From: an uncultured Alphaproteobacteria bacterium
GTDB lineage: Bacteria > Pseudomonadota > Alphaproteobacteria > Rhodobacterales > Rhodobacteraceae
Length of the DNA stretch: 64,000 nt
NCBI GenBank assembly: GCA_902537235.1
Contig: CACBAO010000005.1
Coordinates: 19,951 to 83,950, forward strand
Direction of reading: 5' to 3'
Every line of letters starts with the position of its first letter. Within the stretch, counting starts at the first letter, position 1. The notes beneath the pieces are model-generated. The model saw only the letters and a list, made by a program, of their open reading frames with translations, did no database searches and was not told the DNA's origin. Below are positions 6,858 to 38,827 of this stretch, in pieces. The translations under genes and the position numbers were made by a program.

Positions 6858-7922
6858 ATGTCAGATACAAATTTGGATATTGAAAAACTAAAAAACCTCC
6901 AGTTTAAAATAATGAAAGATGTTGCAGCATCAGCGTTAATCCCGCTTATGCGAATAGGAGATCAGTTAGGGCTCTTCCAAAAACTTTCAGAGTTAGGGCC
7001 TATAAATTCAAAAAAATTTGCTGAAGAAGCTAGAGTTGATGAGCGGTATTTGAGAGAATGGCTATATGCGCTATCTGCCACTGACTTTGTCTCTTACGAT
7101 GGAGCAAAAGAAGAATTTTCATTGTCACCTGAACAAAGAGCAGTTTTTGCTGATGAAGAAGGGCCAGCAAACATGATGGGTGCGTACGAAGTCTTAGCAG
7201 GACAAGTATATGCTGAGGAAAAAGTGTTAGAGGCATTTAAAACAGGAAATGGTGTAGCTTATGAAAATGCGTGCCCTCTGTGTTTTACTGGAACTGCTAG
7301 ATTTTTCAAACCATCTTATCAGGTAAATCTTATAAAAAAATGGCTTCCAATGATTGATGGTTTTGAGGAAAAAATGAAGTTGGGAGGAAGTTTTGCTGAT
7401 GTGGGCTGTGGTCATGGGTTGTCTACTTTGATGGTAGCGCAAGCGTTTCCAGAGGCAAGCGTCTTTGGCTTTGATTTTCATGAACCATCGATAATTGAGG
7501 CAAAAAAACTAGCCGACAACGCTGTAAGTTCAGAGAAAATTAGTTATGAGATAGCTGACGCTAAAAGCTACTCAGGCAATTACGACTATATCGCTTTTTT
7601 TGATTGCCTTCATGATATGGGTGATCCCGTGGGGGCAGCAAAATATGCCTACGATCGCTTAAACGATGGTGGAGCTGTAATTCTCATTGAGCCAACAGCA
7701 AATGACAAGCCAGAGGAGAATTTCAATATATATGGACAGATGTATTATTCATTTTCAACCATGGGTTGTATACCAGTTTCTAAATCTCAGGAGGTAGGCT
7801 TAGCATTAGGTGCTCAGGCTGGACCTGCAAAACTAATTGAGGTGTTAGAAAAGGCAGGCTTTAAGGACTGCAAGATAGTCAAAAAAAATGCAACGAATAT
7901 GGTTTTAGAGGCGAGAAAATAA
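6858..7922 (+). CDS. class I SAM-dependent methyltransferase with an N-terminal helical domain
   Basis: Motif I FADVGCGHGLST, FGFDFH and AFFDCLHDMGDP are present. The substrate is unknown. Confidence 0.75.
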   Translation: MSDTNLDIEKLKNLQFKIMKDVAASALIPLMRIGDQLGLFQKLSELGPINSKKFAEEARVDERYLREWLYALSATDFVSYDGAKEEFSLSPEQRAVFADEEGPANMMGAYEVLAGQVYAEEKVLEAFKTGNGVAYENACPLCFTGTARFFKPSYQVNLIKKWLPMIDGFEEKMKLGGSFADVGCGHGLSTLMVAQAFPEASVFGFDFHEPSIIEAKKLADNAVSSEKISYEIADAKSYSGNYDYIAFFDCLHDMGDPVGAAKYAYDRLNDGGAVILIEPTANDKPEENFNIYGQMYYSFSTMGCIPVSKSQEVGLALGAQAGPAKLIEVLEKAGFKDCKIVKKNATNMVLEARK

Positions 7923-9074
7923 AAGCTTATAATTTATCATGCAAATTCCTGCTATAAAAAGTGAGCAACCTGATAAAAGCATCGCGTTTTGGTAATTTCC
8001 AAAAAAGTCGATCATTAAACCAGAAACGTATGGCCCAATAATCTGGCCGACGCTAAAGGTAGTAGTTAAAAAAGCTACAGCAAATGTTATTGATCCAGCG
8101 TGCCTTATCTTTCCCTCCATTAACACTAAACCTACGATGCCAACAACACCAAATCCATATGCCACGCAGGCAAATAATGAAGCGCTTATTCCTTCAAAAA
8201 AATACAATGTAAGTATACCTGAAGAACAGGTTAGGCACGATAGGGCCAGAGATATATGATTACCAGTAATTTTACTGATAGCTTGCCAGATGAAAATGGC
8301 TGGCATAGCAGAAATCCCAACTAAGATCCAACTCGCATGCTGAATGTTCTCTAATGCAGGAGTGTTGACCGCCAAAGCTGCGATAAAGGTACCAAAAATA
8401 ATATAGCCAAACCCAAAAAATAAGTAACCTACTGAGATACCAACGAAGCCTAAAGAGAGTTTATTCGACTGAGAGGTCTGATCAATGCTTGCTTCTGAAC
8501 TTACTTCTAGTGGACTTGAAATGATCGGTATAGTTAAAACCAAGCAAATCAACGCTATCACAAACCATTGGTAGTGCCATTGCAAGTCAAACATAGAGCA
8601 GATCCATACAGCTACAGCACTCAAAAACATTCCAACACCAAAACCCGATATATGAGCTAAACGAAGATCTATACGACCGGTAACTGTAATCTGAGAAAAA
8701 ATTAGATTTGTCGCAATAACTAACCCAATTGCACCTGAAATTCCCTGAAGGAATCTTAATAGAATAAATAAGTAAAAATCATTAGTTGAACCCATAAGGC
8801 CAAGTGTCACAATGGACACCACAACCGATAGATAAAGTGTAAGCCTTTGTTTGTTTGCAAAAGAATAAATAAGGGGAATGATCGAACCAATTAGATATCC
8901 CAAATAGTTAGAAGAAGCTATCAAGCCGATATCTGCAGAAGAAATATTAAGAGTATTCTGCATGTAGGGAATTATAGGAGTATAGGCAAACCTGCCTAAG
9001 CCGCCAGTAATTGCCACAACACAAATTCCTACCAGTGCCAATCTAAACTGTGAATTTGTTGTTAAAAGTGACAT
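7905..9074 (-). CDS. MFS transporter, YbfB/YjiJ-like
   Basis: About 12 predicted TM segments. The N-terminal GLGRFAYTPIIPYM is typical of the YbfB/YjiJ (MFS_4) group. The 3' end overlaps the convergent methyltransferase gene by 18 nt. Confidence 0.7.
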   Translation of the reverse strand: MSLLTTNSQFRLALVGICVVAITGGLGRFAYTPIIPYMQNTLNISSADIGLIASSNYLGYLIGSIIPLIYSFANKQRLTLYLSVVVSIVTLGLMGSTNDFYLFILLRFLQGISGAIGLVIATNLIFSQITVTGRIDLRLAHISGFGVGMFLSAVAVWICSMFDLQWHYQWFVIALICLVLTIPIISSPLEVSSEASIDQTSQSNKLSLGFVGISVGYLFFGFGYIIFGTFIAALAVNTPALENIQHASWILVGISAMPAIFIWQAISKITGNHISLALSCLTCSSGILTLYFFEGISASLFACVAYGFGVVGIVGLVLMEGKIRHAGSITFAVAFLTTTFSVGQIIGPYVSGLMIDFFGNYQNAMLLSGCSLFIAGICMINYKLLFSRL

Positions 9075-9150
9075 TTCTTTTTATAGTTCCTATGATTGAA
9101 AATAGCTTTTCTTATGCCTAAAGAATATGCAAACAAAAGGATAGCCATAA

Positions 9151-11313
9151 ATGAATAGTGAGGAAAGTTTTTTTGAAAGAGACTTGGTTCTTATCGGAGC
9201 GGGGCATACAAATTGTCTTTTTTTGAAAATGTGGGCAATGAAGAGTGATCCTTCTCTTCGAGTGACTCTAATAAATCCAGATCCTATTTCCTCTTATACC
9301 GGTATGCTACCTGCTCTAGTAGCTGGTTTATGTGCCAAATCAGATGCTCAAATAAATTTATTCAGTTTGTGTAGAGCTACAGAAACAAGATTAATTATCG
9401 ATACTGTTAAAAAAATCGATAAGAAAAAAAATCAAATTATGTGTAAGACAGGGAGGATTGTAAACTTTGATCTCCTATCCATAAATATTGGATCTAACTC
9501 CGTCCCTTTGATAAATGGGTTTAAAAAATTTGGATGCAGTGTTCGGCCTCTAGCTGCATTTCAAGAGCGTTGGGAAAACTTTTTGGAGTCCATTAATGAA
9601 AAATCGTCTCCGGTTATTTGTGTTGTAGGGGGAGGCCTAGCATCAATTGAGTTGGGTTTCGCAATGGATATTCGATTGAAAAAGACTGAATTAAAAGATT
9701 TTAAGATTAAAATTTTTGAAAGTGGTAAAGCTTTTGAAAAACTGAGTTTAAATCAGCAAAGATATTTGAAAACCAAAGCCAAACTACGAAAAATTGAAAT
9801 AATTGAAAATACTACAATAAAAGAAGTTTCAAATAATGGGTTAGTACAAAAAAACGGCAATTTTGTTCATGCAGATTTTATTATTTCTTGTATAGGACCT
9901 CAACCAAACGATTTGTTTAAAAAGTCAAAAATTGAAAATAAAGATGGATATGTTTGCGTCGACGAAACGCTAAGAGTTATAGGTTTTCAAAATGCGTTTG
10001 CAGTTGGTGATTGTGCACATTTCCCTTCTAAAGCTGTAGATAAGTCAGGAGTTTATGCAGTTAGGCAAGCACCAATTCTTTATAAAAATATCCTTAAGCT
10101 TTTTAAGAACAAGCAGCTAATTCGATTTAAACCTCAAAGTGATTATTTAAAGCTCATTGTCTATGAAGGTGATTCCGCGATTTTCCTTAGAAATGGGGTT
10201 GCCTTTTCAGCAAAATGGGTTTGGGCATTAAAAAGTTTTATTGATAAAAAGTTTATAAAGAATTTTAAAAAACTTAGTGAGATGGTCACTAAAAATATGG
10301 AAAACGCTCGAAGCAATAACCAAAAAATGCTTTGTGGTGGCTGTGGCTCGAAAGTCGGAAATGTTATTTTGGAGTCTTCGTTAAGGAAGTTAGCAGATCC
10401 TAGCTCAAAACATATTGTTAGTAAAATAGGAGATGACGCAGCAATTATAAAATTTAATTCCTTGTTTCAAGCTTTGACGACCGATCATCTGAGGTCATTT
10501 ACAAAGGATGCGTGGCTTCAAAGTAAGATAACGGCGATTCACGCTTTGGGAGATATTTGGGCAATGGGATCCGATCCTGAAATCGCTCTCACAAATATTA
10601 TTATTCCAGAGTCCTCCAATGACATACAAAAGCGAACAATCGAAGAAATTATAGATGGGGCAAATAGTGTTTTTGGTGCTGATGGAGTGAAGATAGTGGG
10701 TGGTCATACCTCTTTAGGAAAAGAGCTAGTAATCGGGTTCACGTTGGGAGGTTTTTCCAAAAACCAACCTAAGACTGTCGATAAGGCAAGTGTAGGTGAT
10801 CAAATAATATTAACAAAACCATTAGGCTCTGGGATTCTATTGGCAGGGGAAATGCGTTTTGAAGGTGAAGGGCAGGATCTAAAAAATCTTTTTGATGCAA
10901 TGTCTAAGTCACAAAGTTCTATCGCAAATGTGTTGAGGAAAGTTGCAAACTCGATGACGGACATCACTGGATTTGGCTTAGGTGGCCACCTTCTAAACAT
11001 AGTTTCAAAGTCTAACGTAGGAGCAAAACTATATTTGGATCAGATACCAGTATACCCTGGTGCCAATAATCTTATAGCCAAAGGTATTAGGTCTTCGATT
11101 TTTGAGAATAATTATATGTATTCTGAGAGAATGATTATTAAAACAACAGCGAATACAGATATCCTTTTTGATCCCCAAACATCCGGTCCATTACTTGCTA
11201 CCGTTCCGAAGAGCAAAGTAAAGGGTGTTATTACATCTGGTGAAAAGTTGGGTTTTGAGTGTAAAGTAATTGGCGAATTGGCAATTGGAAAGCCCTATAT
11301 TGAGGTTTTATAG
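9151..11313 (+). CDS. selD: fusion protein: FAD-dependent pyridine-nucleotide-disulfide (NDH-2-like) oxidoreductase domain plus selenide,water dikinase (selenophosphate synthetase)
   Basis: aa 1-380 carry two dinucleotide-binding motifs (LIGAGHTN, VVGGGLASIELG). aa 393-720 align along their length with SelD: CGGCGSK (nt 10333-10353, Cys type), DDAA, TTD, GDIWAMG, GGHT, LTKPLGSG, MTDITGFGLGGH and DPQTSGPL. Confidence 0.85.
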   Translation: MNSEESFFERDLVLIGAGHTNCLFLKMWAMKSDPSLRVTLINPDPISSYTGMLPALVAGLCAKSDAQINLFSLCRATETRLIIDTVKKIDKKKNQIMCKTGRIVNFDLLSINIGSNSVPLINGFKKFGCSVRPLAAFQERWENFLESINEKSSPVICVVGGGLASIELGFAMDIRLKKTELKDFKIKIFESGKAFEKLSLNQQRYLKTKAKLRKIEIIENTTIKEVSNNGLVQKNGNFVHADFIISCIGPQPNDLFKKSKIENKDGYVCVDETLRVIGFQNAFAVGDCAHFPSKAVDKSGVYAVRQAPILYKNILKLFKNKQLIRFKPQSDYLKLIVYEGDSAIFLRNGVAFSAKWVWALKSFIDKKFIKNFKKLSEMVTKNMENARSNNQKMLCGGCGSKVGNVILESSLRKLADPSSKHIVSKIGDDAAIIKFNSLFQALTTDHLRSFTKDAWLQSKITAIHALGDIWAMGSDPEIALTNIIIPESSNDIQKRTIEEIIDGANSVFGADGVKIVGGHTSLGKELVIGFTLGGFSKNQPKTVDKASVGDQIILTKPLGSGILLAGEMRFEGEGQDLKNLFDAMSKSQSSIANVLRKVANSMTDITGFGLGGHLLNIVSKSNVGAKLYLDQIPVYPGANNLIAKGIRSSIFENNYMYSERMIIKTTANTDILFDPQTSGPLLATVPKSKVKGVITSGEKLGFECKVIGELAIGKPYIEVL

Positions 11314-12372
11314 AGTTTTCATTCTATTATTTGCTGTTTTCAATATGCTATCAACGGTTAAACTAAGGCCCTTTCGAGATATGTCCTCTATTTCTATGGT
11401 AGCAAATACTTGTTTTTTCTTTCTTAAGAGTCCTCGTTCGTATCTGGGGTCATAGTGTTTTTCAATTAGTTGTTTTGCAAGTGCAATAAATTCTTTGTTT
11501 TTTGCCATTCTCAACCAACTCTCTACAACTTTATGCCCAGCTATTGTCGAAAGGCTCGTAATTTGTTTTTCTAATAAATCTAGATCAGTTGTTATTTCAG
11601 AATATTCTTCAACTAAAAATTGTGCCCTCTGTTCAACTGTAGCCGATATTTCAATTTGTGGAGAGTTTTTCATTAACTTCCAAAATTCTTTAGGTATATG
11701 CAAGTTTCCAATTTTATTAGATTCTGCTTCTACAAATATAGGTTCACCAGTTTTGAGGTTTTTTACTTTATCATAAATCAAAGTTTCGAATAATTTTTGA
11801 GATGGTTGTTTCTGACCTTGTGATCCAAATACTGACCCTTTATGATTAGCTAGGCTTTCCAGATCGATAGTTTGCCCCTGCCTCTCTTCTATCAAGTTAA
11901 GCAGTTTTGTTTTTGCGGTTCCTGTATTACCTGTTATTAGTATTAGAAAGTAATTTTCTATATTTTTATCCAGGAAATCATTGACATGTTTTCGGAATGA
12001 TTTATAGCCTCCATCCACTACTCCTACATCCCATCCTATTTGGTCAAGTATAGTTGCAAAGGCATATGATCGCTGTCCACCTCGCCAACAGTAGATTAAA
12101 GGAAGCCAATCTCGATGTTTTTCTCGAATATTCTCTTTTAAAAAATTCGAAATGTTTTTTGAGATAAGGGCAGCACCGAGTTTTTTTGCTTCAAACTTAC
12201 TATTTTGTTTATATATGGTGCCTACCATCTCACGCTCTTTATCGAAAAGAACCGGTAAATTAATTGCGCCAGGTATATGATCAACCTCATACTCGGATGG
12301 CGACCGAACATCTATTACATCATCGAGTTTTTTCAAGTCGATATCGGAAAAACTTATACGTTTAAATGCCAT
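11308..12372 (-). CDS. selU: tRNA 2-selenouridine synthase (rhodanese plus P-loop)
   Basis: The rhodanese domain has the active-site loop IYCWRGGQRS, and Walker A is ITGNTGTAKTKLL. Length is 354 aa. The stop codon interlocks with the selD stop (TTATAG, 11308-11313). Confidence 0.85.
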   Translation of the reverse strand: MAFKRISFSDIDLKKLDDVIDVRSPSEYEVDHIPGAINLPVLFDKEREMVGTIYKQNSKFEAKKLGAALISKNISNFLKENIREKHRDWLPLIYCWRGGQRSYAFATILDQIGWDVGVVDGGYKSFRKHVNDFLDKNIENYFLILITGNTGTAKTKLLNLIEERQGQTIDLESLANHKGSVFGSQGQKQPSQKLFETLIYDKVKNLKTGEPIFVEAESNKIGNLHIPKEFWKLMKNSPQIEISATVEQRAQFLVEEYSEITTDLDLLEKQITSLSTIAGHKVVESWLRMAKNKEFIALAKQLIEKHYDPRYERGLLRKKKQVFATIEIEDISRKGLSLTVDSILKTANNRMKTL

Positions 12373-12450
12373 ATCCTTATTAAAAACCTCTTTTAAAATC
12401 TTTCAAAATGATGTGCTGTTATTAGATTAGTATTAACTTAAGCGAAAAAA

Positions 12451-13002
12451 TTGGAGGATACAAAAATGTTTTCAAATTTACGAAGAGTTGTAACTGGAAA
12501 TGATGCAAGTGGAAAATCGTTGATAACTTTTGACGGGGCACCCCCTGCGTCCTATGAAATGGGTGCAGGTGGACTTTATGAATTATGGGACTCTGCAGGA
12601 AATAGCCTAAATTCGCAGGATAAACTTGATCGTGGGCTAGGAAAAGTAGTTCTGGGCCCACAATCTGGGGGAGTGAAATTTCGGTATTTCGCAATAGCGC
12701 CAACTCCAGAGGGGATCTCGAATGATGAGTTAAATAAAATGTTTGCTAAAGTATTTGGAGACATTAATGCAGCCGATGATCGTGTGGATGTAACTCGGCA
12801 TCCTGGAATGCATAAAACTAAAACGTTGGACTATATAATCCTCCTAAAAGGAACTGCAAAATTAATTTTAGACAATGATGAAACCGATCTTAAGCCCTTT
12901 GATGTTGTAGTACAGAGGTCTACTAACCATGCTTGGGTATGCACCAGTCAGGATCCTGCTTTATTTATAGCTGTACTTATAGCAACCGAAGTGGATATCT
13001 AA
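12451..13002 (+). CDS. cupin-fold protein of unknown function
   Basis: 183 aa. The beta-rich C-terminal part (GGVKFRYFAIAP...DYIILLKGTAKLILD...DVVVQRSTNHAW) is cupin-like. No catalytic assignment is possible. Confidence 0.5.
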   Translation: MEDTKMFSNLRRVVTGNDASGKSLITFDGAPPASYEMGAGGLYELWDSAGNSLNSQDKLDRGLGKVVLGPQSGGVKFRYFAIAPTPEGISNDELNKMFAKVFGDINAADDRVDVTRHPGMHKTKTLDYIILLKGTAKLILDNDETDLKPFDVVVQRSTNHAWVCTSQDPALFIAVLIATEVDI

Positions 13003-13106
13003 ATCGCCTTTCCTTTTGGTTATATTTAAATAAAGATTTGGTTTTACATTGTGTCAATTTGTCGCTAACTTTTTTAATATAAGAACAAATATTAAAGGGG
13101 GAAACG

Positions 13107-14168
13107 ATGAAAAAACTATTTTTTGGTATTTTTTCTGTATTAATCATTTCTATTACTTCACATCTAGCGGTAGCTAAAGAGATAAGTGTTACTTATGTTG
13201 CTGGACATCCACCGGTATTCAGATGGGTGAAACACGTCAATCAAACATTTATTCCAGCAGTAAACAAATCTTTGGAGGGTAGTGGCCATTCCATAAAATG
13301 GAGTGAGCAATATGGGGGATCCTTGGCAAAAGTTGGAGATGAGCTTGAAGCGGTTGAAGAGGGGTTAGCTGAAATAGGAGGAATATCAAGCTTATTTGAC
13401 CCTGCTAAACTAGCGGTGCAAAACGTCACTTATTATTCTCCCTTTGTTTCAAGTAATGTCGACAAAGTATCTGAGTTAATGACAAGAATGCAGTTCGAAA
13501 ACAAAGATATGAAGGCAGCTTGGGAAGCGAATGGATTAATTCAGCTAGGTGGTTCCATTGCAATTGATGATTACTTACTAATGACAACTTTCCCAGTCAA
13601 TTCGATTGCCGATTTAAAAGGAAGAAAAATTGGAGCTCCTGGTCCTGCTGTTACTTGGTTGAAGGGAACAGGAGCAGTCGGAGTATCCGGTAATCTGACC
13701 ACTTACAACAATGAAATAAAAGCAGGGGTATATGACGGAGTAATAGTTTTTGCTTCTGCAGCATTGCCTGGCAAACTTCATGAGGTGGCCCCATATATTA
13801 CAAAATTTGGGTTTGGAGCTCAATATGCTGGCTCAATTGCGGCTAATAAAGATTGGTTTGAGTCTCAACCCGATGTTGTGCAGAAGGCTCTAATAGACGC
13901 TGGTGAAACATACCGAGTTGCATATCAAAAAGATCTAGGTGCATCAGTTGCTAAATTTCTGTCTATAATGGAATCTCAAGGAGCAAAGGTTTCTGAAGCT
14001 AGTCCCGAGATGAGGAAAAAATGGGCTGCTGGAATGGATAATGTTGCTATGGAGTGGGCTAAAAAACTAGACTCTTCTGGTGTGAATGGAACTGCAGTTC
14101 TAAAAGCCTATATGGACACGATGAGAGCTGCAGGAGCAAAGCCGGTTAGAAACTGGGATAAAGAGTAA
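13107..14168 (+). CDS. TRAP transporter substrate-binding protein (DctP family) with signal peptide
   Basis: There is an N-terminal signal sequence (MKKLFFGIFSVLIISITSHLAVA). Size is about 350 aa, and the gene is followed by DctQ- and DctM-type genes. Confidence 0.8.
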   Translation: MKKLFFGIFSVLIISITSHLAVAKEISVTYVAGHPPVFRWVKHVNQTFIPAVNKSLEGSGHSIKWSEQYGGSLAKVGDELEAVEEGLAEIGGISSLFDPAKLAVQNVTYYSPFVSSNVDKVSELMTRMQFENKDMKAAWEANGLIQLGGSIAIDDYLLMTTFPVNSIADLKGRKIGAPGPAVTWLKGTGAVGVSGNLTTYNNEIKAGVYDGVIVFASAALPGKLHEVAPYITKFGFGAQYAGSIAANKDWFESQPDVVQKALIDAGETYRVAYQKDLGASVAKFLSIMESQGAKVSEASPEMRKKWAAGMDNVAMEWAKKLDSSGVNGTAVLKAYMDTMRAAGAKPVRNWDKE

Positions 14169-14192
14169 AGACAAGTATCTTTTGTAAATTTG

Positions 14193-14226
14193 AGGTGCCT
14201 TTTGAATAAGGCACCTTACTTTTTTT
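14193..14226 (+). terminator. intrinsic terminator or attenuator hairpin after the TRAP binding-protein gene
   Basis: The stem AGGTGCCTT (14193-14201) pairs with AAGGCACCT (14208-14216). The loop is TTGAAT, followed by TAC and a run of 7 T (14220-14226). Confidence 0.55.
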
Positions 14227-14249
14227 AAATTTTATTTCTTCATATACAG

Positions 14250-14897
14250 ATGGGTTTAACAAAGCTTATATTTTCAAAAACAGAACTGTTCTTCAATTTT
14301 ATTACGCAGAGTTTTAATATAATGGGGACGATATTAATCATTTTTATAATGATAATAGTCAATGTTGATGTAATAGGTAGAGAATTGTTTCTAATGCCTA
14401 TTGCAGGCGTCCCAATGATGGTATCAATGTCTATTGTTGCAATAGTTTTTTTGCAAACGCCTCAAACATTTAATCGAGGCAGACTTACTCAAAATGTATC
14501 TATATTAAATGCCATTGGACGAAGAACGCCTTTAGTAAAATTGCTATTAGATATCACATATTCTATAGCAGCTTTTTTCTTAATTTTACAGATATTCAAG
14601 TCGACTTATCCTTTGTTTATAAAATCTTGGGTAAGAAATACGTATGAGGGAACCATAGGAGATTTTACAGCACCAATCTGGCCCATAAAACTTGTCATCC
14701 TTTTGGGGTGTTTTTTACTGATGGTGCAAATCATGTTATTTGGTATTAGGCAAGTGATAAAATATTATGATCCAAAACATCAAGAAAATGAATCAGAAAA
14801 GATTAATGCAGAGGATATGGCTCTAAGGTTAGTTGCACAAAATACGAAAAAGATAATCACGGGAACTGAGGAAAAAGAACCCGCAGAGAGGAACTAA
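14250..14897 (+). CDS. TRAP transporter small permease (DctQ-like) with a long charged C-terminal tail
   Basis: Four hydrophobic segments, positioned between the DctP-like and DctM-like genes. The tail is ...KHQENESEKINAEDMALRL...EEKEPAERN. Confidence 0.75.
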   Translation: MGLTKLIFSKTELFFNFITQSFNIMGTILIIFIMIIVNVDVIGRELFLMPIAGVPMMVSMSIVAIVFLQTPQTFNRGRLTQNVSILNAIGRRTPLVKLLLDITYSIAAFFLILQIFKSTYPLFIKSWVRNTYEGTIGDFTAPIWPIKLVILLGCFLLMVQIMLFGIRQVIKYYDPKHQENESEKINAEDMALRLVAQNTKKIITGTEEKEPAERN

Positions 14898-14939
14898 ATT
14901 GATTGTTTTTTGCTTCAGAGATTTTTTTATTAAGAAGCG

Positions 14940-16259
14940 TTGCTAATGACCCCTTTTGACATTGGACTATACTCACTGGTTGCAATTGTAATACTTGTTT
15001 ATATGGGCTTTTGGGTTCCCTTTGCTTTGATGCTTTCTTCCTACATAGGAGTTTGGTTAATAAAAGACTCCTCTATTTTAGCAGGAAAATTACTAGCACT
15101 GGCAGCATCTGAAACCATTTCAAGCTATTTTTTTGGCGTAGTGCCATTGTTCGTATTCATGGGAAATGTTGTTTCAGCTACAGGGATGGGAGAAGATGCT
15201 TATGACGTTGCTAATCAAGCATTTAGAAAAATCAAAGGTGGTTTGGCTATCGGAACAGTTGGAGCCAACGCAGTATTTGCGGCTGTAACGGGAATATCAA
15301 TAGCATCAGCAGCAGTATTTACTAAAATTGCAGTTCCCCATATGGTCAAGTTTGGTTATTCACCGAGGTTTTCGGTAGGAGTGGTTGCAGGTTCTTCAGT
15401 TCTTGGAATGCTTATTCCTCCAAGCTTGTTGTTAATTTTATATGGAATTTTAACGGAACAATCAATTGGGGATTTATTTGTTGCTGCAATTATTCCAGGG
15501 ATCTTGTTAGCAATAGTTTTTGGCTTTGGAATTTTTATTCTATGTATTTTTTGGAAAAAATTTGTATTTTCAGAAGAAGTTCAAACTTTTGGTGATATTG
15601 AATTAATGCCATTGAAAGATTTTTGCTTAAAATGTTTGCCTTTAATTTTTTTAATTTCCATAGTTTTAGGGGGTATTTACGGAGGGATTTTTACTCCGAT
15701 AGAAGCGGGTGCTATCGGTAGTCTTGGAGCAGTAATAATAGGTATTCTTAAAAGACGGCTTTCATTGAAAGTTCTTTGGGAGGTACTCGTCGAAACTGGC
15801 TATATAACGGCTACAATATCTTTCATTATCATAGCGGCACAGATGTATGCCAGAATGCTAGCTCTTTCTGGAATGCCAGCAGAGTTTGGTTCGTTTGTGG
15901 TTGGTTCAGACCTAAGCATAATGGGTATAATAATTCTTTATATAATACTCATTATACTGATGGGAACGATATTAGATAGTGGATCAATAATGTTGATACT
16001 AGTACCTTTAATGTATCCTATATTGGTCTCTCTGAATATTGATTTGATTTGGTTTGGAATAGTCACCGTTATTGCCGTTGAGGTAGGGCTCCTTACTCCT
16101 CCTTTAGGCATATCTATATTTGTTATTAAGTCTTCTCTAGATAATGATAAAATATCATTGGGAGACATATTTGCGGGTGCGGCACCATTTGCTTTAATGA
16201 TGGTTACAGTTTTGTTACTTGTGATTGCTTTCCCAATTTTGACAACAATTCTTTTATAA
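14940..16259 (+). CDS. TRAP transporter large permease (DctM family)
   Basis: 439 aa and highly hydrophobic, with a DctM-like pattern (AIGTVGANAVFAAVTGISIASAA, LIPPSLLLILYG). The start is TTG 14940 or ATG 14946. Confidence 0.9.
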   Translation: MLMTPFDIGLYSLVAIVILVYMGFWVPFALMLSSYIGVWLIKDSSILAGKLLALAASETISSYFFGVVPLFVFMGNVVSATGMGEDAYDVANQAFRKIKGGLAIGTVGANAVFAAVTGISIASAAVFTKIAVPHMVKFGYSPRFSVGVVAGSSVLGMLIPPSLLLILYGILTEQSIGDLFVAAIIPGILLAIVFGFGIFILCIFWKKFVFSEEVQTFGDIELMPLKDFCLKCLPLIFLISIVLGGIYGGIFTPIEAGAIGSLGAVIIGILKRRLSLKVLWEVLVETGYITATISFIIIAAQMYARMLALSGMPAEFGSFVVGSDLSIMGIIILYIILIILMGTILDSGSIMLILVPLMYPILVSLNIDLIWFGIVTVIAVEVGLLTPPLGISIFVIKSSLDNDKISLGDIFAGAAPFALMMVTVLLLVIAFPILTTILL

Positions 16260-16268
16260 GAGGAAAAA

Positions 16269-17045
16269 ATGCCAAGAAAATTTATTGATCTTTCGGTAGC
16301 CTTAGAAACGGGTATTGTTTCAGATCCTCCTATGGCTCTTCCCGAAATAGAGTATGTAGATCACGCTATGTCAGCAGATCAAATCTGTTCCTTTTTTCCA
16401 GGACTCGACAAAAAAGATTTGCCCGGTGAAGAAGGTTGGGCCGTGGAAAATCTGAAAATAAGTACTCATAACGGTACGCATTTAGATGCTCCTTATCATT
16501 ACCATTCTACAATGGATGGTGGAAAACGAGCCATTACGATTGATGAGGTTCCTTTGGATTGGTGCTTTAATGATGGTGTAAAATTAGACTTCAGGCATTT
16601 TGAGGACGGTTATGTGGTTACTCCCAACGACATAGATGCTGAACTAGATAGAATAGGTTATCAAATTAAACCCTTTGATATAGTCTTGGTCAACACTTCA
16701 GCTGGGGAGAGATACGGTTACGATGATTATTTACTCAAAGGCTGCGGTATAGGTCGAGAAGCAACTCTTCATCTAACTAGTAAGGGAGTTAAAATTACTG
16801 GAACGGATGCATGGAGTTGGGATGCGCCATTTTCTCATACAGCAAAAAGATATGCTGAGAGTAAGAATTCTTCTATAATTTGGGAGGGACATAGAGCTGG
16901 TATGGAAAGAGCATATTGTCATATTGAAAAACTGAGCTCATTAGAAAAACTACCTGACTTTGGTTTTTTAGTTTCTTGCTTTCCCTTTAAAATAAAGAAA
17001 GCATCAGCTGGCTTCATTAGAGCAGTAGCAATCCTGGAAGAATAA
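16269..17045 (+). CDS. cyclase-family metal-dependent hydrolase (kynurenine formamidase / isatin hydrolase fold)
   Basis: The signature HNGTHLDAPYHY (HxGTHxDxPxH) is present. Length is 258 aa. Confidence 0.8.
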   Translation: MPRKFIDLSVALETGIVSDPPMALPEIEYVDHAMSADQICSFFPGLDKKDLPGEEGWAVENLKISTHNGTHLDAPYHYHSTMDGGKRAITIDEVPLDWCFNDGVKLDFRHFEDGYVVTPNDIDAELDRIGYQIKPFDIVLVNTSAGERYGYDDYLLKGCGIGREATLHLTSKGVKITGTDAWSWDAPFSHTAKRYAESKNSSIIWEGHRAGMERAYCHIEKLSSLEKLPDFGFLVSCFPFKIKKASAGFIRAVAILEE

Positions 17046-32647: not shown

Positions 32648-34330
32648 ATGAACAAAATTCAAAAGATCACAAAAGGGAAACGAGACTTTTTTTCCCCCAA
32701 GGGTAGGCAAGTGGATGATCTAGCTCTAGACAGGATTAAGTCCATCTTAGCTGACCTGGAAATAAGAAGAGATCTTCTTATAGAGGCACTGCACAAAGTT
32801 CAAGATGCTTATGGATACATCAGTGCTGAAGACATGGCGGCATTGGCAGATATTTTCAAATTATCTCAAGCTGAGGTTTATGAGGTAGGGAGTTTTTATC
32901 ATCATTTTAAAATCGTAAAAGAGGATGGAAAGAAACCCCATAAATCAAAATTAAGAATTTGTGATGGGTTATCATGTGAAATGGCTGGTGCACATGCACT
33001 TTTTGACTTAGTGAAAGACGAATTGTCAGCCGAAAAAATAGAGATTGAAAAAGTCCCCTGTATTGGTCGATGCGCCTCTGCACCAGCGGCGCGCTTCAAC
33101 AATTTACCTATCGATAATTTGAACATAAAAAAAGTTAAAGAAATACATCGCGGTGGAATGTCTTATGTCCTTAAGTTACCTCAATACGAGAATCTTAATG
33201 AGTATGTTAGTAGGGGTGGATACCGAACACTCAATAAAATCAAAAAAGGGGAACTAAAATCAGAGAACCTTATTAAATTGATTGCAGATTCAAAACTAAG
33301 AGGTTTAGGCGGTGCAGGGTTCCCCGCTGGTAAAAAATGGGAAATTGTTAGGTCTTTTGAGGGACCGCGTTTGATGACCGTGAACGGTGACGAAGGAGAG
33401 CCGGGCACATTTAAGGATAGGTTTTGGTTAGAAAGAAGACCGCATCAAATGTTGGAGGGGGCCTTGATTGCAGCTCATATCGTTGAATGTGAAAAAATTT
33501 ACATTTATATGCGTGATGAATATCCTGAGGTATTAGAAATATTAAAAAGAGAAATAAATTCAATTGAAAAAGAAAATATTGCGGATATTTCTATCGAATT
33601 AAGACGAGGCGCTGGTGCATATATTTGTGGCGAAGAAAGTGCCATGATAGAAAGCATTGAAGGTAAAAGGGGCTTGCCAAGACATAGACCACCATATATT
33701 GCTGAGGTCGGGTTATTTGGAAGACCTACGCTAAATCATAATATAGAGACTTTAAACTGGCTTCCCGATATAATTGAAAATGGGGTTGATTGGTTTAAAA
33801 GAAAGGGCTGGACTGAGGCTTATAGCGGCGTGCGATCTTTTTCAGTATCAGGTCGAGTAAAAATTCCTGGAGTAAAAATTGCTCCAGCGGGTATACCTCT
33901 TCAACAGCTAATAGTCGACTATTGTGGGGGAATGCAAGACGGACACACATTAAAGGCATTCTTCCCTGGTGGAGCATCCGGGGGAATACTTCCAGCCAAT
34001 CTAGCATCATTACCACTTGATTTCGGAATTTTTGAAGAGTATGGGGGCTTTATTGGCTCGCATGCGATAGTGATTTTATCTGATCAAGATAATATCAAAG
34101 AGGCAGCTTTGAACACAATGCGTTTTTTTAAGCATGAAAGCTGTGGGCAATGCACCCCATGTAGGTCTGGTACGGACAAAATGATTAGTCTACTAGAAGA
34201 TAACAATAAGGAATTAGATCTCTATAACGCTCTTATCAAGGTTATGAGTGACAGTTCAATTTGTGGGTTAGGCCAAGCGGCTAGCAACTGTGTATCTCAT
34301 CTTATTAAATATTTTCCAGAGGAGTTTTGA
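32648..34330 (+). CDS. fdsB: NAD-dependent formate dehydrogenase diaphorase subunit, fused gamma (NuoE-like) plus beta (NuoF-like)
   Basis: The N-terminal ~150 aa are NuoE-like (2Fe-2S Cys pattern CDGLSC...CIGRC). Then come NuoF-like GLGGAGFPAGKKWE, NGDEGEPGTFKDR, a YICGEESAMIESIEG FMN site and ESCGQCTPCR. Confidence 0.85.
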   Translation: MNKIQKITKGKRDFFSPKGRQVDDLALDRIKSILADLEIRRDLLIEALHKVQDAYGYISAEDMAALADIFKLSQAEVYEVGSFYHHFKIVKEDGKKPHKSKLRICDGLSCEMAGAHALFDLVKDELSAEKIEIEKVPCIGRCASAPAARFNNLPIDNLNIKKVKEIHRGGMSYVLKLPQYENLNEYVSRGGYRTLNKIKKGELKSENLIKLIADSKLRGLGGAGFPAGKKWEIVRSFEGPRLMTVNGDEGEPGTFKDRFWLERRPHQMLEGALIAAHIVECEKIYIYMRDEYPEVLEILKREINSIEKENIADISIELRRGAGAYICGEESAMIESIEGKRGLPRHRPPYIAEVGLFGRPTLNHNIETLNWLPDIIENGVDWFKRKGWTEAYSGVRSFSVSGRVKIPGVKIAPAGIPLQQLIVDYCGGMQDGHTLKAFFPGGASGGILPANLASLPLDFGIFEEYGGFIGSHAIVILSDQDNIKEAALNTMRFFKHESCGQCTPCRSGTDKMISLLEDNNKELDLYNALIKVMSDSSICGLGQAASNCVSHLIKYFPEEF

Positions 34331-37149
34331 TTATGAGCCTCGATAATCCAACGATTAATGAAAAAATATTTTTTACTTTAGATGGCAAACGTGTGGAAGC
34401 AACTAAAGGAGAAACCATTTGGCAAGTTGCTAAGAGACATGGGGTTACTATTCCACATCTTTGTTGGAAAGATGCTCCTGGGTATAGAGCGGATGGAAAT
34501 TGCAGGGCATGCATGGTTGAGATAGAGGGGGAAAGAGTCTTAGCGGCTTCTTGTGTTAGAATGCCTTCAGAAGGAATGTCGGTTATATCACAGGGAGAAA
34601 GGGTCAATAGTAATAGGAAAATCGTTTTTGACCTCCTTGCTTCAGATATGCCGATTAAAGAGCAGAGTCCAGACCCAGAAGCCCATTTCTGGACTCAAGC
34701 GAAAAATGCAGATTTTGAAAGCCCATCTTTTCCAAGCAGTAAACCAGGAGCAAAAAATGAAATTCCTGTAGATAGTATATTCCGCGACGCGTCACACCCA
34801 TCGATTGCAGTTAATCTTGACGCGTGCATAGCTTGTGGTCTTTGTGAAAGAGCTTGTAAGGAAGTTCAGGTTAATGATGTAATAGGTATGGCTAAAAGAG
34901 GTATTGATACAGTTCCTGTTTTCGACATAGAAGACCCTATGGGATCTTCCTCTTGTGTAGCATGTGGAGAATGCGTTCAGGCTTGCCCCACGGGTGCCCT
35001 GATGGAAAAGTCTTTGATGAATGCAGAATCAACTAAAAGAATAGCCTATCCGGAAAAAAAGATTGAAAGCGTTTGTCCATTTTGTGGCGTTGGATGTCGT
35101 ACTGAGGTAAGTGTAAAAGAAAATCGGATAATAAAAGTCGATGGCATTCAAGGTCCGGCGAATAGGGGTAAGCTGTGTGTCAAAGGAAGGTTCGGAATGG
35201 ACTATGTTATGCATCCTGAACGACTTACTAAACCTTTAATAAGAAGGACAGGTGTCGAAAAGAAACCAGACTGCGCATACGATTTTTCAGATATAAATGA
35301 AATTTTTAGAGAAGCAACATGGGACGAAGCACTAGATTTAGCTGCTTCAAAATTTTTGAAGATACTTGAGCAAAAAGGAGGCCAGGCGCTTAGCGGGTTT
35401 GGGTCAGCTAAAGGAACAAATGAAGAGGCTTATTTATTCCAAAAATTTATAAGACAAGGCTTCGGCACTAATAATGTCGATCACTGTACAAGGCTATGCC
35501 ATGCTTCAAGTGTTGCTGCTCTTATGGAAGGAATTGGGTCAGGGGCAGTATCAGCGCCTTTTACTGCTGCAGATGACAGTGACTGTATTATGATAATAGG
35601 AGCAAGACCGGAACAGAACCATCCAGTGGCCGCAACTTACTTTAAACAGGCAGCCAAAAACGGGAAAAAATTAATTGTTATGGATCCGAGGAAACAGGGT
35701 TTAATGCGTTTAGCAAGCCATCCTGTTGTATTCAATGCTGGTCGCGATGTTGCAATGCTTAATGCAATGATTAATGTAATAATTGAAGAAAACTTGTATG
35801 ACACACAATATATCCAAGCTAATGTGGATGGCTTTCAATCTTTGGCCGAGAACGTAAAGGATTTTACCCCAGAGGCAATGGAAGAAGTCAGTGGAGTTAA
35901 GGCAGAGTATATAAGAGAAATTGCACGAACATATGCTACCTCAAACAACAGTATAATTTTTTGGGGAATGGGTATCAGTCAGCACGTTCATGGAACTGAT
36001 AATGCCCGATGTCTCATAGCCTTATCGTTAATCACAGGTCAAATTGGTAGAAAAGGGACCGGGCTTCATCCTTTGAGAGGACAAAATAATGTTCAAGGTG
36101 CTTCTGACGCTGGCCTTATACCCATAACATATCCCGACTACAAGTCAGTTGAGAACTCAGATATGCGTAAGCATTATGAGGATGCATGGGGAAGATCTTT
36201 GGATCCTGTCAAAGGACTTACCGTAGTTGAAATAATGAATGCAATAAATGATGGCGATATATCCGGAATGTATATTATGGGAGAAAATCCAGCTATGAGT
36301 GATCCGGATCAGCGGCACGCTAGACACGCTCTTTCAAAACTAGATAACCTCGTAGTTCAGGACATATTTTTTACTGAAACAGCTTGGTTTGCTGACATAA
36401 TTTTTCCAGCCTCAGCTCAAGCAGAAAAGCTGGGTACATACACGAACTCTAATAGGCAGATTCAATTAGGTCGACCTGTATTAGAGATGCCGGGTGATGC
36501 GAGACAAGATTGGGAGTTGATAGTTGATTTAGCCAAAAGATGTGGGCTGAAATGGGAATATAATAGTGTTTCAGATGTTTACAAAGAAATGGCAGGTCAT
36601 ATGAGAAGTTTAGATAATATAAGCTGGGATCGTTTGGAGAAAGAAGGATCGGTCTGCTATCCAAGCTTTGGTCCTGACTTACCAGGAGAGGAGGTTATAT
36701 TTTTCTCTGGGTTCCCAACTGAGACAGGAAAAGCCAAAATTGTGCCAACCGACCTTCTTCCTCCAGACGAATTGCCAGATGAAAAATATCCTTTTGTCTT
36801 AACCACTGGTAGGGTACTAGAACATTGGCATACAGGTGCAATGACAAGAAGAGCGTCGATGCTAGAAGCACAAGAGCCTATTCCAGTCGTAAGTATGCAT
36901 CCAAGGGATGCAAAAATTCAGGGTTTCAACAGGGGTGACTGGGTTTGTGTAAAAACGAGAAGGGGAGAAGTTGAGCTTCAACTCAAGCTTGATAGGGATG
37001 TCAGTGAAGGGATGCTATTTATGCCATTTTGTTACGTTGAAGCACCTGCAAACTTCTTAACTAACCCACAACTTGATCCATATGGAAAAATTCCTGAGTT
37101 TAAATTCTCAGCAGCACAAGTAACTAGGTCAAAAAAAACGGCAAACTAA
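34327..37149 (+). CDS. fdsA: formate dehydrogenase alpha subunit (molybdopterin; Cys type)
   Basis: N-terminal 2Fe-2S and 4Fe-4S Cys clusters (CRACMVE, CIACGLCERAC, CVACGECVQACP, CPFCGVGC). The molybdopterin domain has HCTRLCHASS (Cys at the Sec/Cys position). The start overlaps the beta stop by 4 nt. Confidence 0.9.
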   Translation: MIMSLDNPTINEKIFFTLDGKRVEATKGETIWQVAKRHGVTIPHLCWKDAPGYRADGNCRACMVEIEGERVLAASCVRMPSEGMSVISQGERVNSNRKIVFDLLASDMPIKEQSPDPEAHFWTQAKNADFESPSFPSSKPGAKNEIPVDSIFRDASHPSIAVNLDACIACGLCERACKEVQVNDVIGMAKRGIDTVPVFDIEDPMGSSSCVACGECVQACPTGALMEKSLMNAESTKRIAYPEKKIESVCPFCGVGCRTEVSVKENRIIKVDGIQGPANRGKLCVKGRFGMDYVMHPERLTKPLIRRTGVEKKPDCAYDFSDINEIFREATWDEALDLAASKFLKILEQKGGQALSGFGSAKGTNEEAYLFQKFIRQGFGTNNVDHCTRLCHASSVAALMEGIGSGAVSAPFTAADDSDCIMIIGARPEQNHPVAATYFKQAAKNGKKLIVMDPRKQGLMRLASHPVVFNAGRDVAMLNAMINVIIEENLYDTQYIQANVDGFQSLAENVKDFTPEAMEEVSGVKAEYIREIARTYATSNNSIIFWGMGISQHVHGTDNARCLIALSLITGQIGRKGTGLHPLRGQNNVQGASDAGLIPITYPDYKSVENSDMRKHYEDAWGRSLDPVKGLTVVEIMNAINDGDISGMYIMGENPAMSDPDQRHARHALSKLDNLVVQDIFFTETAWFADIIFPASAQAEKLGTYTNSNRQIQLGRPVLEMPGDARQDWELIVDLAKRCGLKWEYNSVSDVYKEMAGHMRSLDNISWDRLEKEGSVCYPSFGPDLPGEEVIFFSGFPTETGKAKIVPTDLLPPDELPDEKYPFVLTTGRVLEHWHTGAMTRRASMLEAQEPIPVVSMHPRDAKIQGFNRGDWVCVKTRRGEVELQLKLDRDVSEGMLFMPFCYVEAPANFLTNPQLDPYGKIPEFKFSAAQVTRSKKTAN

Positions 37150-37226: not shown

Positions 37227-37303
37227 GGTGACGTAGCTCAGCTGGATAGAGCACCAGATTTCGGCTCTGGGGGTCGAGGGTTCGAATCCTTCCGTCATCG
37301 CCA
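37227..37303 (+). tRNA. tRNA-Arg (anticodon UCG), CCA encoded
   Basis: Folded by hand. Acceptor GGTGACG/CGTCATC, D arm GCTC-AGCTGGATA-GAGC (A20 present) and anticodon arm CCAGA-TTTCGGC-TCTGG (anticodon TCG at 37261-37263). Variable loop GGGTC, T arm GAGGG-TTCGAAT-CCTTC, discriminator G, then CCA. Confidence 0.85.
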
Positions 37304-38827
37304 TTAATTTTGTCCATTAATTAAGTCTAGATTAATTCCAAAATCAGTTTCTATTTGTCTTAATATCTCTGGGCTTAGGTGGCTCCTAAAATTGCTAGAA
37401 AGAATTTTTTCAAGGTTTTTTCTGGCTTCGTTTAACATTGTATTATCTTTTTCTTTCATCCATAACTCTGGCGATAACCTTTTTGCCGATTTTGGATAAT
37501 CAAAATCAGTACTCATTCTTTTCAAGGTATCAGACTCTCCTAAAAAGTGCTTGTCCCCCTCAATTACTTGCCTTATGGACTCTAAATCATCGGTTAGCGC
37601 TGGTACATCTATGCTACGCATTGAACTCAAAATTGATCCACATAGTTCATTATCGAGAACGAAAGATTCAAGGGATACTCCCATTAGACCGCTGAGCATA
37701 CCGCTTGCTTGTGTGACTAAATTTGCTCCTGACTGTGCTGAGGTTGCTATTGAGAGAGCTTTCTCATAACCTGCTTGGTAATCGGGAATATTGCTGTCTG
37801 ATGCACCAGCGATCGATGAGTTTGGGATCTTGTAGTAATGCATCATTTGACTAAGCAAAGAGGTGGTTTGTGCTTGCTCTCCGCTTCCTCCAGCCATTCC
37901 GCCTGTCCTTAGATCGGTTACCATAGCTCTTGGACCACAGATAACTTTTGAATCTGGATCTAAAAGCCAACATATTAATAACCCTGATAATGCCTCAGCA
38001 ATCGTTTGACAGACTGATCCAACAATGCTGACAGGGCTGGAAGCGCCTCGCTGTCCAAACACGTTTGCCATAACAGGAATTCCATATTTGACACTCTCTC
38101 TCATAACTTCGCACGCTTCAGTATCTAACCTAAGTGGAGGAATTATGAAATTGATATTTAAAGATAAAAACGGTGATCGCCTAAAAGCGTCTTCCCCACC
38201 AGCTATAAGATAGCAGACTTCGGCCAAGGGTTTTACGGTATTAGAGTTGGCGACGCTTGTCATGACATGTTTGTTGGTAGCAGATAAAGATATAACAGCT
38301 GTATAGATATCCATTAGGTGTGGGTCTGCAATATCTGTCAGTACCAAGGGCCTTGAAAAAAAACTCAGATTATCTAATCTATCAACAACTCGGGCTGCGT
38401 TTAAGAGATCTTTTCCTAAAGAGGGGCGATAAATTTTTTTTTCATAGTCCAAAATAAGCGGAGCAGCACCCCCTGTTCCAAAATAAACATTTCCTTTTGA
38501 CAGATCTAAGTAGTTCTCTAGATTTTGTTGATGCAATAAAATTTTGTTGTTGAACGATTTTAGGCACTGATCAATTAGCCCTAATCCAAAGCAGAACCGA
38601 TTATTTTTTCTAATAATCGTTTTATTATCAATAAAACTTTCTAAAAATTTCGGAAGTTGCTCAAAGCCTATTTCAGACAGAATGTGCTGCACCCCCGCAT
38701 GGATCTCGGCCTTGTCTTTTTCTGATAGTGTGTTGAGACTGTTGCTAAACACGCCTAAATTTTTAGAGTTATCAAATTCAATGCTCTCTTGAGCTCCACG
38801 GGAACGTGATCCTCTTCGTCGACTCAT
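37304..38827 (-). CDS. MttB-superfamily methyltransferase, non-pyrrolysine type (quaternary-amine/betaine methyltransferase-like)
   Basis: 507 aa with an Arg-rich N-terminus MSRRRGSRSRG. YFGTGGAAPLILD, ARVVDRLDN and NINFIIPPLRLDTEACE fit COG5598. The frame is uninterrupted, with no in-frame TAG. Confidence 0.85.
   Translation of the reverse strand: MSRRRGSRSRGAQESIEFDNSKNLGVFSNSLNTLSEKDKAEIHAGVQHILSEIGFEQLPKFLESFIDNKTIIRKNNRFCFGLGLIDQCLKSFNNKILLHQQNLENYLDLSKGNVYFGTGGAAPLILDYEKKIYRPSLGKDLLNAARVVDRLDNLSFFSRPLVLTDIADPHLMDIYTAVISLSATNKHVMTSVANSNTVKPLAEVCYLIAGGEDAFRRSPFLSLNINFIIPPLRLDTEACEVMRESVKYGIPVMANVFGQRGASSPVSIVGSVCQTIAEALSGLLICWLLDPDSKVICGPRAMVTDLRTGGMAGGSGEQAQTTSLLSQMMHYYKIPNSSIAGASDSNIPDYQAGYEKALSIATSAQSGANLVTQASGMLSGLMGVSLESFVLDNELCGSILSSMRSIDVPALTDDLESIRQVIEGDKHFLGESDTLKRMSTDFDYPKSAKRLSPELWMKEKDNTMLNEARKNLEKILSSNFRSHLSPEILRQIETDFGINLDLINGQN

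Follow-up and report, generated by a model that had tools for sequence, protein, structure and literature searches.

Flavoprotein and SelD halves of the fusion gene

The window analyzed here is a 64,000-nt stretch of DNA from an uncultured alphaproteobacterium of the Rhodobacteraceae (GenBank assembly GCA_902537235.1, contig CACBAO010000005.1, positions 19,951 to 83,950 of the forward strand), with a G + C content of 38%. On its forward strand, positions 9151..11313 hold a fusion gene of 720 aa in which, according to hidden Markov models (HMMs), homologues and a structure model, an NDH-2-like flavoprotein domain precedes the selenophosphate synthetase SelD. A convergent gene of 354 aa on the reverse strand, selU (also mnmH; 11308..12372), is assigned to tRNA 2-selenouridine(34) synthase by the models NF008752 and TIGR03167. 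Judged from these assignments, the locus is predicted to form a two-gene selenium-activation module composed of the fusion SelD and SelU. Both the architecture of the fusion and the hypothesis that its flavoprotein half reduces selenium are already known from the literature and from curated HMMs; because the fusion has been published since 2008 and curated HMMs exist, the window provides one more member of the family and no discovery. What is new here is that the flavin domain is NDH-2-like without a conserved Cys, and that an invariant GVxAVR in it replaces the quinone motif of NDH-2.

The open reading frame (ORF) at 9151-11313 runs through its 720 aa with no interruption in frame, as an earlier first-pass annotation of this DNA had read it, and every motif quoted by that annotation was found at its place in the fusion (LIGAGHTN, VVGGGLASIELG, CGGCGSK, GDIWAMG, GGHT, LTKPLGSG, MTDITGFGLGGH and DPQTSGPL). 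Against Pfam, the protein matched Pyr_redox_2 over residues 11-294 (E 4e-22), AIRS over residues 427-532 and AIRS_C over residues 548-710. Against NCBIfam, the N-terminal half passed TIGR03169 at 352.5 bits (cutoff 310; residues 11-372), beside its Pyr_redox_2 match, and the C-terminal half passed the SelD equivalog TIGR00476 at 252.9 bits (cutoff 125; residues 391-689). An AlphaFold2 model of the fusion, built on a 120-sequence alignment, reached a mean predicted local distance difference test score (pLDDT) of 89.7 and a predicted template modelling (TM) score of 0.90, with low confidence at residues 1-4, in the loop 292-299 and in the linker at residues 388-391. The short linker as a whole spans residues 388-394 (10312..10332, forward strand; pLDDT below 50 at residues 388-391); its length and sequence vary among homologues, and it is short in the window clade, where alignment A1 shows a 7-residue deletion. 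It includes Met393, an in-frame ATG at 10327-10329, two codons 5' of the catalytic CxxC loop, from which a free SelD could conceivably be produced by internal initiation; since Met393 is not kept among the homologues in alignment A1, this start is probably meaningless.

The SelD domain occupies residues 391-720 (10321..11310, forward strand), close to the residues ~393-720 of the first-pass annotation, and was recognized by TIGR00476, by matches in the PDB and by Foldseek; it comprises the AIRS and AIRS_C folds and carries the motifs GDDAA, TTD, GDIWAMG and MTDITGFG. In sequence it matched the solved SelD structures 2yye (Aquifex aeolicus; E 1e-38) and 3u0o (E. coli; E 7e-32), and the modelled half superposed on both with Foldseek TM scores of 0.86-0.88. 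Alignment to the solved SelDs and reading of the codons placed the glycine-rich catalytic loop, C395-G-G-C398-G-S-K401, at 10333..10353, where C398 aligns with Cys17 of E. coli SelD, K401 with Lys20 and C395 with Gly14 (3u0o). Both loop Cys codons (10333-10335 and 10342-10344) are TGT, in agreement with the earlier statement that the catalytic codon is not TGA. C395 is thus an additional Cys, three residues upstream of C398, which turns the loop into a CxxC. Over the 120 homologues of alignment A2, C395, C398, G399, K401, D429, D445, D468 and D604 are invariant, and the four Asp residues match the DDAA, TTD, SDI(F/Y)AMG and TDVTGFG motifs of the solved SelDs. Among 87 diverse fusions, taken as representatives of 50%-identity clusters, 84 kept C395, C398, K401 and all four Asp.

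Compared with the single-domain SelDs 3u0o and 2yye, the C-terminal half therefore shares the fold, the equivalents of Cys17 and Lys20 and all Asp motifs, while differing in the extra Cys at the position of E. coli Gly14 and in an N-terminus that is tethered to a 390-residue flavoprotein. The curated model TIGR04369 (fusion_not_SelD, 'oxidoreductase/SelD-related fusion protein') describes the same two-domain layout and aligned over residues 14-691, but its cutoff was not reached (397.8 bits against 700); unlike that family, the window protein keeps the catalytic Cys and Lys and passes the SelD equivalog. On these sequence grounds, the C-terminal half lacks none of the features that a functional Cys-type selenophosphate synthetase should have.

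The flavoprotein domain (residues 11-372; 9181..10266, forward strand) corresponds to TIGR03169, 'Nterm_to_SelD', and was delimited by HMM and Foldseek. The two dinucleotide-binding motifs noted in the first-pass annotation are both present with invariant glycines, and the alignment places the first Rossmann motif, GAGHTN (family signature GxGHxH), at 9187-9216 and the second, GGGLASIE, at 9619-9654. The first part of the family signature consists of GxGHxH (G16, G18 and H19), YTGMLP (Y49, G51, L53 and P54) and GGGxxxxE (G160, G162 and E167); the second part consists of GD (G286 and D287), G300-V-x-A-V-R305 and a helix bearing W358, K361, D365 and F368. The window clade has N21 instead of the usual H21. 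Residue 190, which ends the second beta-alpha-beta unit, is acidic in ~37% of the fusions and is E190 here.

With respect to structure, the N-terminal half of the model was most similar to NDH-2, with TM scores of 0.83 for 4nwz (C. thermarum) and 0.82 for 5na1 (S. aureus), followed by FSP1 (0.76-0.78) and the sulfide:quinone oxidoreductases (SQRs; 0.71-0.77). The likeness to the two NDH-2 structures extends over ~390 columns and includes the two Rossmann motifs, the GD motif, the W/K/I/D/aromatic equivalents of the C-terminal helix and the lack of a catalytic Cys, whereas identity is only ~20%, GxGHxH stands here for GxGxxG and GVxAVR for AQxAxQ. Residue mapping places GVYAVR (10048-10065, forward strand) at the position of the NDH-2 AQxAxQ, so that A316-Q317-x-A-x-Q321 of 4nwz corresponds to the family-invariant G300-V301-x-A303-V304-R305. 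In the model, a long C-terminal helix of 33 residues (355-387; 10213..10311, forward strand) precedes the linker; model and alignment identify W358, K361, D365 and F368 as its invariant residues, and W358, K361, I364, D365 and F368 correspond to W374, K376, I379, D380 and Y383 of 4nwz. The equivalent helix carries the mutation of the deposited NDH-2 'I379E variant'; it ends as a membrane anchor in NDH-2, but here it runs on into the linker and SelD. In NDH-2, AQxAxQ and elements of this helix form the quinone site. With an invariant GVxAVR standing in for AQxAxQ, an altered acceptor site is probable, although the I379-type helix is kept.

No Cys is conserved in residues 1-385 of the diverse fusions (C74 in 62%, C288 in 43%, all others below 30%), which argues that the N-terminal half is not a classical disulfide reductase. 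The CoADR models gave only 46 bits against cutoffs of 458-579, and the NCBIfam model SQR_III_seleno gave 56 bits against 525. Taken together, the modelled fold and both dinucleotide-binding motifs indicate an NDH-2-type FAD/NAD(P)H flavoprotein that has no redox-active Cys of its own. The 'disulfide-reductase domain' of the first-pass annotation was therefore placed in the right superfamily, that of FAD/NAD(P)H-dependent, NDH-2-like proteins, but the disulfide-reductase part of the name is imprecise, given the best match to NDH-2 and the lack of a conserved Cys.

The selU neighbour, distribution and unfused relatives

The identification of the convergent gene as selU, already made from its motifs, was confirmed with both SelU/MnmH equivalogs (NF008752, 421.5 bits against 266; TIGR03167, 349.1 bits against 219.75). 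Pfam recognized Rhodanese in the SelU of the window, and relatives carry AAA_SelU. The rhodanese loop CWRGGQRS lies at 12067-12090 and the P-loop GNTGTAKT at 11908-11931, both on the reverse strand; in alignment A3, Cys95 of the former and G148, T150, G151, K154 and T155 of the latter are invariant. This Walker A sequence has Ala at the canonical Gly of GxxxxGK[ST], and the same is seen in loci L016 and L024, while the P-loop of loci L017 and L018 is G(N/M)TGSGKT. SelU converts 2-thiouridine to 2-selenouridine at tRNA position 34 in a selenophosphate-dependent manner.

The two ORFs overlap by the 6 nt TTATAG (11308..11313), which hold both stops: TTA encodes Leu720 of the fusion and reads as the TAA stop of selU on the other strand, and TAG ends the fusion and is, on the other strand, the last Leu codon of selU. 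A scan of positions 8900-12600, in which promoter and terminator counts did not exceed those of shuffled sequence, found no terminator-like hairpin at the junction. Across lineages, the distance from stop to stop varies between an overlap of 18 nt and a spacer of 11 nt, and the close clade harbors two selU alleles, one ~90% identical to that of the window with the 6-nt overlap and the other ~79% identical with a 5-nt spacer. Since junction lengths vary in this way, tight convergence is the general feature; the interlocked stops pointed out in the first-pass annotation are real in the sequence, but TTATAG is specific to one selU allele. Beyond the selU start, the cupin and TRAP transporter genes (DctP/Q/M-like) at 12485-16273 were absent from loci L001 and L012 in direct comparison, and in the other single-cell genomes with the divergent selU allele, the flanks gave no match to cupin or TRAP genes. 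As the presence of cupin and TRAP genes varies, selU lies at the edge of a presence/absence polymorphism, which is probably a recombination tract.

A word-indexed search matched the fusion to more than 3000 database proteins. Among the 120 matches listed, all but one were ~710-750 aa long with at least 93% query coverage, and identity ranged from 96% to 36%; they include Hyphomonas neptunium, Ruegeria, Roseobacter and Tropicimonas and are mostly annotated as SelD. Identity to annotated proteins of Rhodobacteraceae and Hyphomonas was 38-41% over the full length. A tblastn genome scan retrieved 15 loci, which belong to single-cell genomes of uncultured marine Alphaproteobacteria (AG-### isolates). 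Residues 1-720 were covered at 83-96% identity in 13 of them and two ended at a contig edge, so that the single frame, in place of two separate genes, is intact in 13 related genomes. Wherever these loci reached far enough upstream, the order was that of the window: hydrolase, ADH, methyltransferase, MFS (reverse strand), fusion (forward strand) and selU (reverse strand).

Among eight fusion lineages sampled from genomes and assembly contigs, selU was adjacent in seven, convergent in six and on the same strand in one. It abuts the fusion convergently in the window clade, in L016 (40% identity), in Planktotalea arctica (L017; 34%), in H. neptunium (L027), and in L029 and L030; in L018 it is co-directional and downstream of the fusion, and from L028 it is absent. 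It is the sole neighbour kept with the fusion across deep divergence. The metagenome scan, performed with a profile of the unfused N-domain proteins described below, gave 80 loci, which were classified by script as fused (58), unfused (13), ambiguous (1) or running off the contig (8). At the fused loci, selU was found within 5 kb in 31 of 58 cases, immediately downstream and convergent in 24, immediately upstream on the same strand in 5, downstream on the same strand in 1 and further away in 1. One of the 58 had selA and selB. In H. neptunium, the pair of fusion and selU adjoins selB-selA, suggesting that the fusion can also serve the selenocysteine (Sec) trait.

With residues 1-385 as the query and an E-value limit of 1e-30, an exhaustive HMMER search yielded 1054 cluster representatives. 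Among the 145 new representatives listed, there were 81 fusions, 56 proteins of 364-472 aa and 8 fragments. The unfused proteins carry every signature residue of the N-domain and pass TIGR03169 at 390-491 bits. We considered that these short hits might be fusions cut at a Sec TGA (CxxU loop) and rejected this, as most of the 56 end directly after the W..K..ID..F helix, away from where a Sec TGA would lie, and none has a C-x-x tail; one of them, P0122, is possibly cut by its contig end, and longer contigs were used to judge unfused contexts. A simple split-gene picture was likewise discarded, because no conserved separate selD was found beside the unfused genes at the 13 metagenomic loci or in the 5 other contexts judged.

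Two unfused members nevertheless reside in sel clusters. At L024 (535-2471 of a Logan contig, SRR33375175), an unfused but complete flavoprotein of 383 aa (P0132) is convergent with a bona fide selU with a 43-nt overlap, tail to tail as in the fusions, and this selU carries CWRGGQRS and GNTGTAKT; the contig is single and short, and an assembly problem is possible. At L096 (4980-7081 of Ga0207697_10000863), a 384-aa unfused flavoprotein gene with its own stop lies on the forward strand between selB (forward) and selA (reverse). Locus L104 (4998-8280 of Ga0073934_10003021) is syntenic with it, with selB (forward), a full TIGR03169-SelD fusion (forward) and selA (reverse). The flavoproteins of L096 and L104 share 73% amino acid identity and their flanks share 70-80% nucleotide identity, and the nucleotide alignment shows that a SelD segment of ~1.1 kb is cleanly absent from L096; a search for a degraded or frameshifted SelD remnant there by tblastn to E 10 found none. 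L096, set within a Sec gene cluster, is thus an 'un-fusion' that arose in nature, and L024 and L096 indicate that the association between the flavoprotein and selenium genes is not strictly dependent on fusion. The TIGR03169 family can apparently act as a separate polypeptide too, and its members also occur outside selenium contexts.

Two further unfused contexts were noted, both of which may be coincidental. At L022 (3230-7119 of SUNY21-1_SAMEA6942735 scaffold_12175), the TIGR03169 gene is divergent from a cluster encoding a radical SAM + DUF3641 (ArsS-like) protein, a family 2 glycosyltransferase and DUF2064, with a SUI1 gene alone intervening; this three-gene set bears the NCBI/TIGRFAMs label 'rSAM/selenodomain-associated'. 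At L026 (2926-7179 of GCA_022760435.1, JALEFY010000012.1), a Methyltransf_30 gene and a separate DAO gene, which together resemble a split MnmC, are found at a distance of 1-3 kb from the TIGR03169 gene; mnm5s2U, the product of MnmC, is the substrate selenated by SelU.

Possible role of the flavoprotein half

The fusion was described as 'Ndh-SelD', with CxxC, by Zhang and Gladyshev in 2008 (PMC2398784). In their survey of Global Ocean Sampling data, hundreds of Ndh-SelD fusions, all with CxxC, made up ~40% of the Cys-type SelDs, while CxxC occurred in fewer than 5% of single-domain SelDs (PMC2398784). The fusion is the most abundant Cys-type SelD variant of the surface ocean. Mariotti et al. 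(2015) reported that it is by far the commonest SelD fusion and that it also occurs in protists, via horizontal transfer (PMC4561486). The window protein agrees with this family in domain order, in passing both HMM cutoffs, in its Cys-type CxxC, in its marine alphaproteobacterial host and in its selU neighbour, and differs from it in nothing of substance, the linker being slightly shorter and N21 replacing H21. A comparable arrangement is found in NifS-SelD of Geobacter sp. FRC-32 and some protists, in which a candidate selenium supplier is also fused N-terminally to SelD (PMC2398784, PMC4561486), but there the partner is a domain of the PLP-dependent cysteine/selenocysteine lyase type and no flavoprotein.

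That a flavoprotein reduces a selenium compound for SelD was proposed by the same group in 2008 (PMC2432076). The same suggestion in the first-pass annotation is therefore supported, but it was not a new idea. That annotation also held, correctly, that no enzyme is agreed upon for this step, since a 2026 review still describes the system that donates selenium to SelD in vivo as 'incompletely elucidated' (PMC13188914); the fusion is an obvious handle on this question. Because natural unfused versions sit in selU and selA/selB clusters, experiments comparing supply in cis and in trans are feasible.

Several features of the fusion are consistent with such a role. By its short flexible linker, the flavoprotein joins straight onto the mobile glycine-rich loop of SelD, and the extra Cys of this loop correlates with the fusion. 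Since the flavin domain has no conserved Cys, no candidate thiol acceptor other than the CxxC loop is left, and C395, C398 and K401 form the only invariant Cys/Lys set (84 of the 87 diverse fusions). The altered acceptor motif, the frequent selU neighbour and the two unfused genes within sel clusters also speak for this role. In the mechanism that we favor, NAD(P)H would pass a hydride to the flavin; E190, at the end of the second beta-alpha-beta unit, makes NADH the likely donor here. The flavin would then reduce, by two electrons, an oxidised selenium species that is bound to the CxxC loop or brought to it. The acceptor might be a Cys-S-Se-S-Cys selenotrisulfide, arising from selenite or GS-Se-SG, or a loop disulfide. 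Reduction would leave a perselenide on Cys398 or an enzyme-bound selenide, which SelD would phosphorylate with ATP, and SelU would then spend the selenophosphate on tRNA. If this is true, SelD would need neither free HSe- nor the general thiol systems, and this could be of importance in oxic seawater with nanomolar selenium.

We assign the whole picture, that is, the identities of SelD, flavoprotein and SelU together with the selenium-reducing role, a probability of about 0.55. The identities of the domains and of the neighbour are by themselves highly probable, and the selenium-reducing role of the flavoprotein half falls a little short of even odds. A broader proposal is more tentative and stands at roughly one chance in three: the TIGR03169 flavoprotein may be the dedicated supplier of reduced selenium to SelD, in cis in the fusions and in trans at L024 and L096, replacing glutathione/thioredoxin or NifS-type routes in aerobic marine bacteria. 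The supplier reaction would then be the NAD(P)H/FAD-dependent reduction of a selenotrisulfide or Se(0) adduct on CxxC to Cys-perselenide.

Several observations weigh against a selenium-reducing flavoprotein. The catalytic loop of SelD, on which the proposed transfer depends, was modelled with low confidence (pLDDT ~66). Unfused members are common (56 of the 145 representatives listed and 13 of the 80 metagenomic loci), and no selenium gene was found within 5 kb at 12 of these 13 loci or in 4 of the 5 other contexts judged; as most unfused members have no selenium neighbours, the family may well have a basic activity in which selenium plays no part. The helix of the NDH-2 quinone site is kept in the N-domain, so that a quinone or another small acceptor is possible, and with an acidic residue 190 in only ~37% of the fusions, nucleotide preference is not uniform across the family. 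Within the literature searched, neither biochemical nor structural studies of the fusion were found, later reviews contribute no experiments, and a sequence search of the PDB returned no structure of it. This agrees with the earlier remark that such fusions had been noticed in marine surveys and not characterized biochemically.

One alternative is that the flavoprotein is a thiol-maintenance domain, which would keep the CxxC loop reduced as a built-in reactivase of aerobic cells, by repairing an intramolecular disulfide or an over-oxidised Cys, and would not reduce selenium. The CxxC is the sole conserved Cys pair and co-occurs with the fusion, and data from the oxic surface ocean contain the fusion in abundance (PMC2398784). 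Here, too, the lack of a Cys in the flavin domain means that the loop would accept electrons directly; however, it would be unusual for electrons to pass straight from a flavin to a protein disulfide when the flavoprotein has no relay dithiol, and the unfused members without a nearby selD must have another acceptor. This explanation differs from selenium reduction by substrate alone, and sequence data cannot separate the two; we regard it as unlikely.

Less likely still is a generic, membrane-associated NDH-2-type reductase of NADH with a quinone or small acceptor, whose chemistry would be unrelated to selenium and whose fusion would serve localisation (such as holding SelD at the membrane close to selenium uptake) or co-regulation, or would be neutral and spread by horizontal transfer. 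NDH-2 is the best structural match over the whole length including the C-terminal helix, the equivalents of W374, K376, I379, D380 and Y383 are conserved, and many unfused members have no selenium neighbours. Nevertheless, AQxAxQ has become GVxAVR throughout the family, the membrane-anchor helix of NDH-2 continues here into a soluble domain, and two unfused members are still found within sel clusters; the strict co-occurrence of the fusion and the extra loop Cys further argues for chemical coupling.

An SQR-like chalcogenide oxidoreductase, which would oxidise excess HSe- protectively or buffer a persulfide/perselenide pool, appears improbable. Its support comes from the SQRs among the structural neighbours, including the A. 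ferrooxidans SQR crystallised with selenide (3sz0), and from the weak SQR_III_seleno match; yet SQR catalysis requires a conserved Cys in the flavoprotein and none is conserved in this half, NDH-2 matches better than SQR, and selenide oxidation would oppose the fused SelD. Finally, two genes joined by a frameshift or an assembly error can be dismissed, as the same frame is intact in 13 independent single-cell genomes, in 58 of the 80 metagenomic loci, in cultured Hyphomonas, Ruegeria and Roseobacter, and in literature since 2008.

Other features of the window

A promoter-like site, GTGACA-17-TATGAT (9068..9096, forward strand), which matches at 10 of 12 positions, lies in the 76 nt that separate the fusion gene from the divergent MFS gene. 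As the 13 such sites found in 8900-12600 do not exceed those of shuffled sequence (12.1 +/- 3.1), it is a candidate and the evidence for it is weak.

The upstream genes for a YbfB-type MFS protein (7905-9074) and an Rv2258c-like methyltransferase (6858-7922) are kept within the close clade of single-cell genomes only. At the distant loci L016-L018, tblastn detected neither of them, and other genes were seen upstream (EamA in L016, CrtC-like in L017). A selenium role for this pair, which had been offered as pure speculation, is thus without support, the two neighbours being unconserved outside the close clade.

As stated in the first-pass annotation, the window showed none of the remaining Sec genes: selA and selB were not found among its ORFs of at least 200 aa, and Rfam and ARAGORN detected tRNA-Arg only and no tRNA-Sec. 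None of the three was seen in the flanks of the relatives, up to 10 kb on each side. A trait limited to selenouridine cannot be shown from 64 kb, and the H. neptunium pair adjoins selA-selB. The formate dehydrogenase (FDH)-like alpha subunit at 34327-37149 is a single continuous ORF of 940 aa and therefore contains no in-frame TGA. This molybdopterin subunit and a NuoE/F-like subunit (32648-34330), which overlaps it by 4 nt, form an NAD-dependent FDH-like pair.

The tRNA-Arg(TCG) gene at 37227-37303 abuts the stop end of a convergent gene of the MttB methyltransferase family (37304-38827, reverse strand). Further along, positions 41538-47744 encode a protein of 2068 aa that combines multiple PAS domains with a histidine kinase and two receiver domains, and a fusion of a response regulator and an adenylate/guanylate cyclase follows it at 48114-49163. 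The sensory protein is very large for a marine alphaproteobacterium of 38% G + C.

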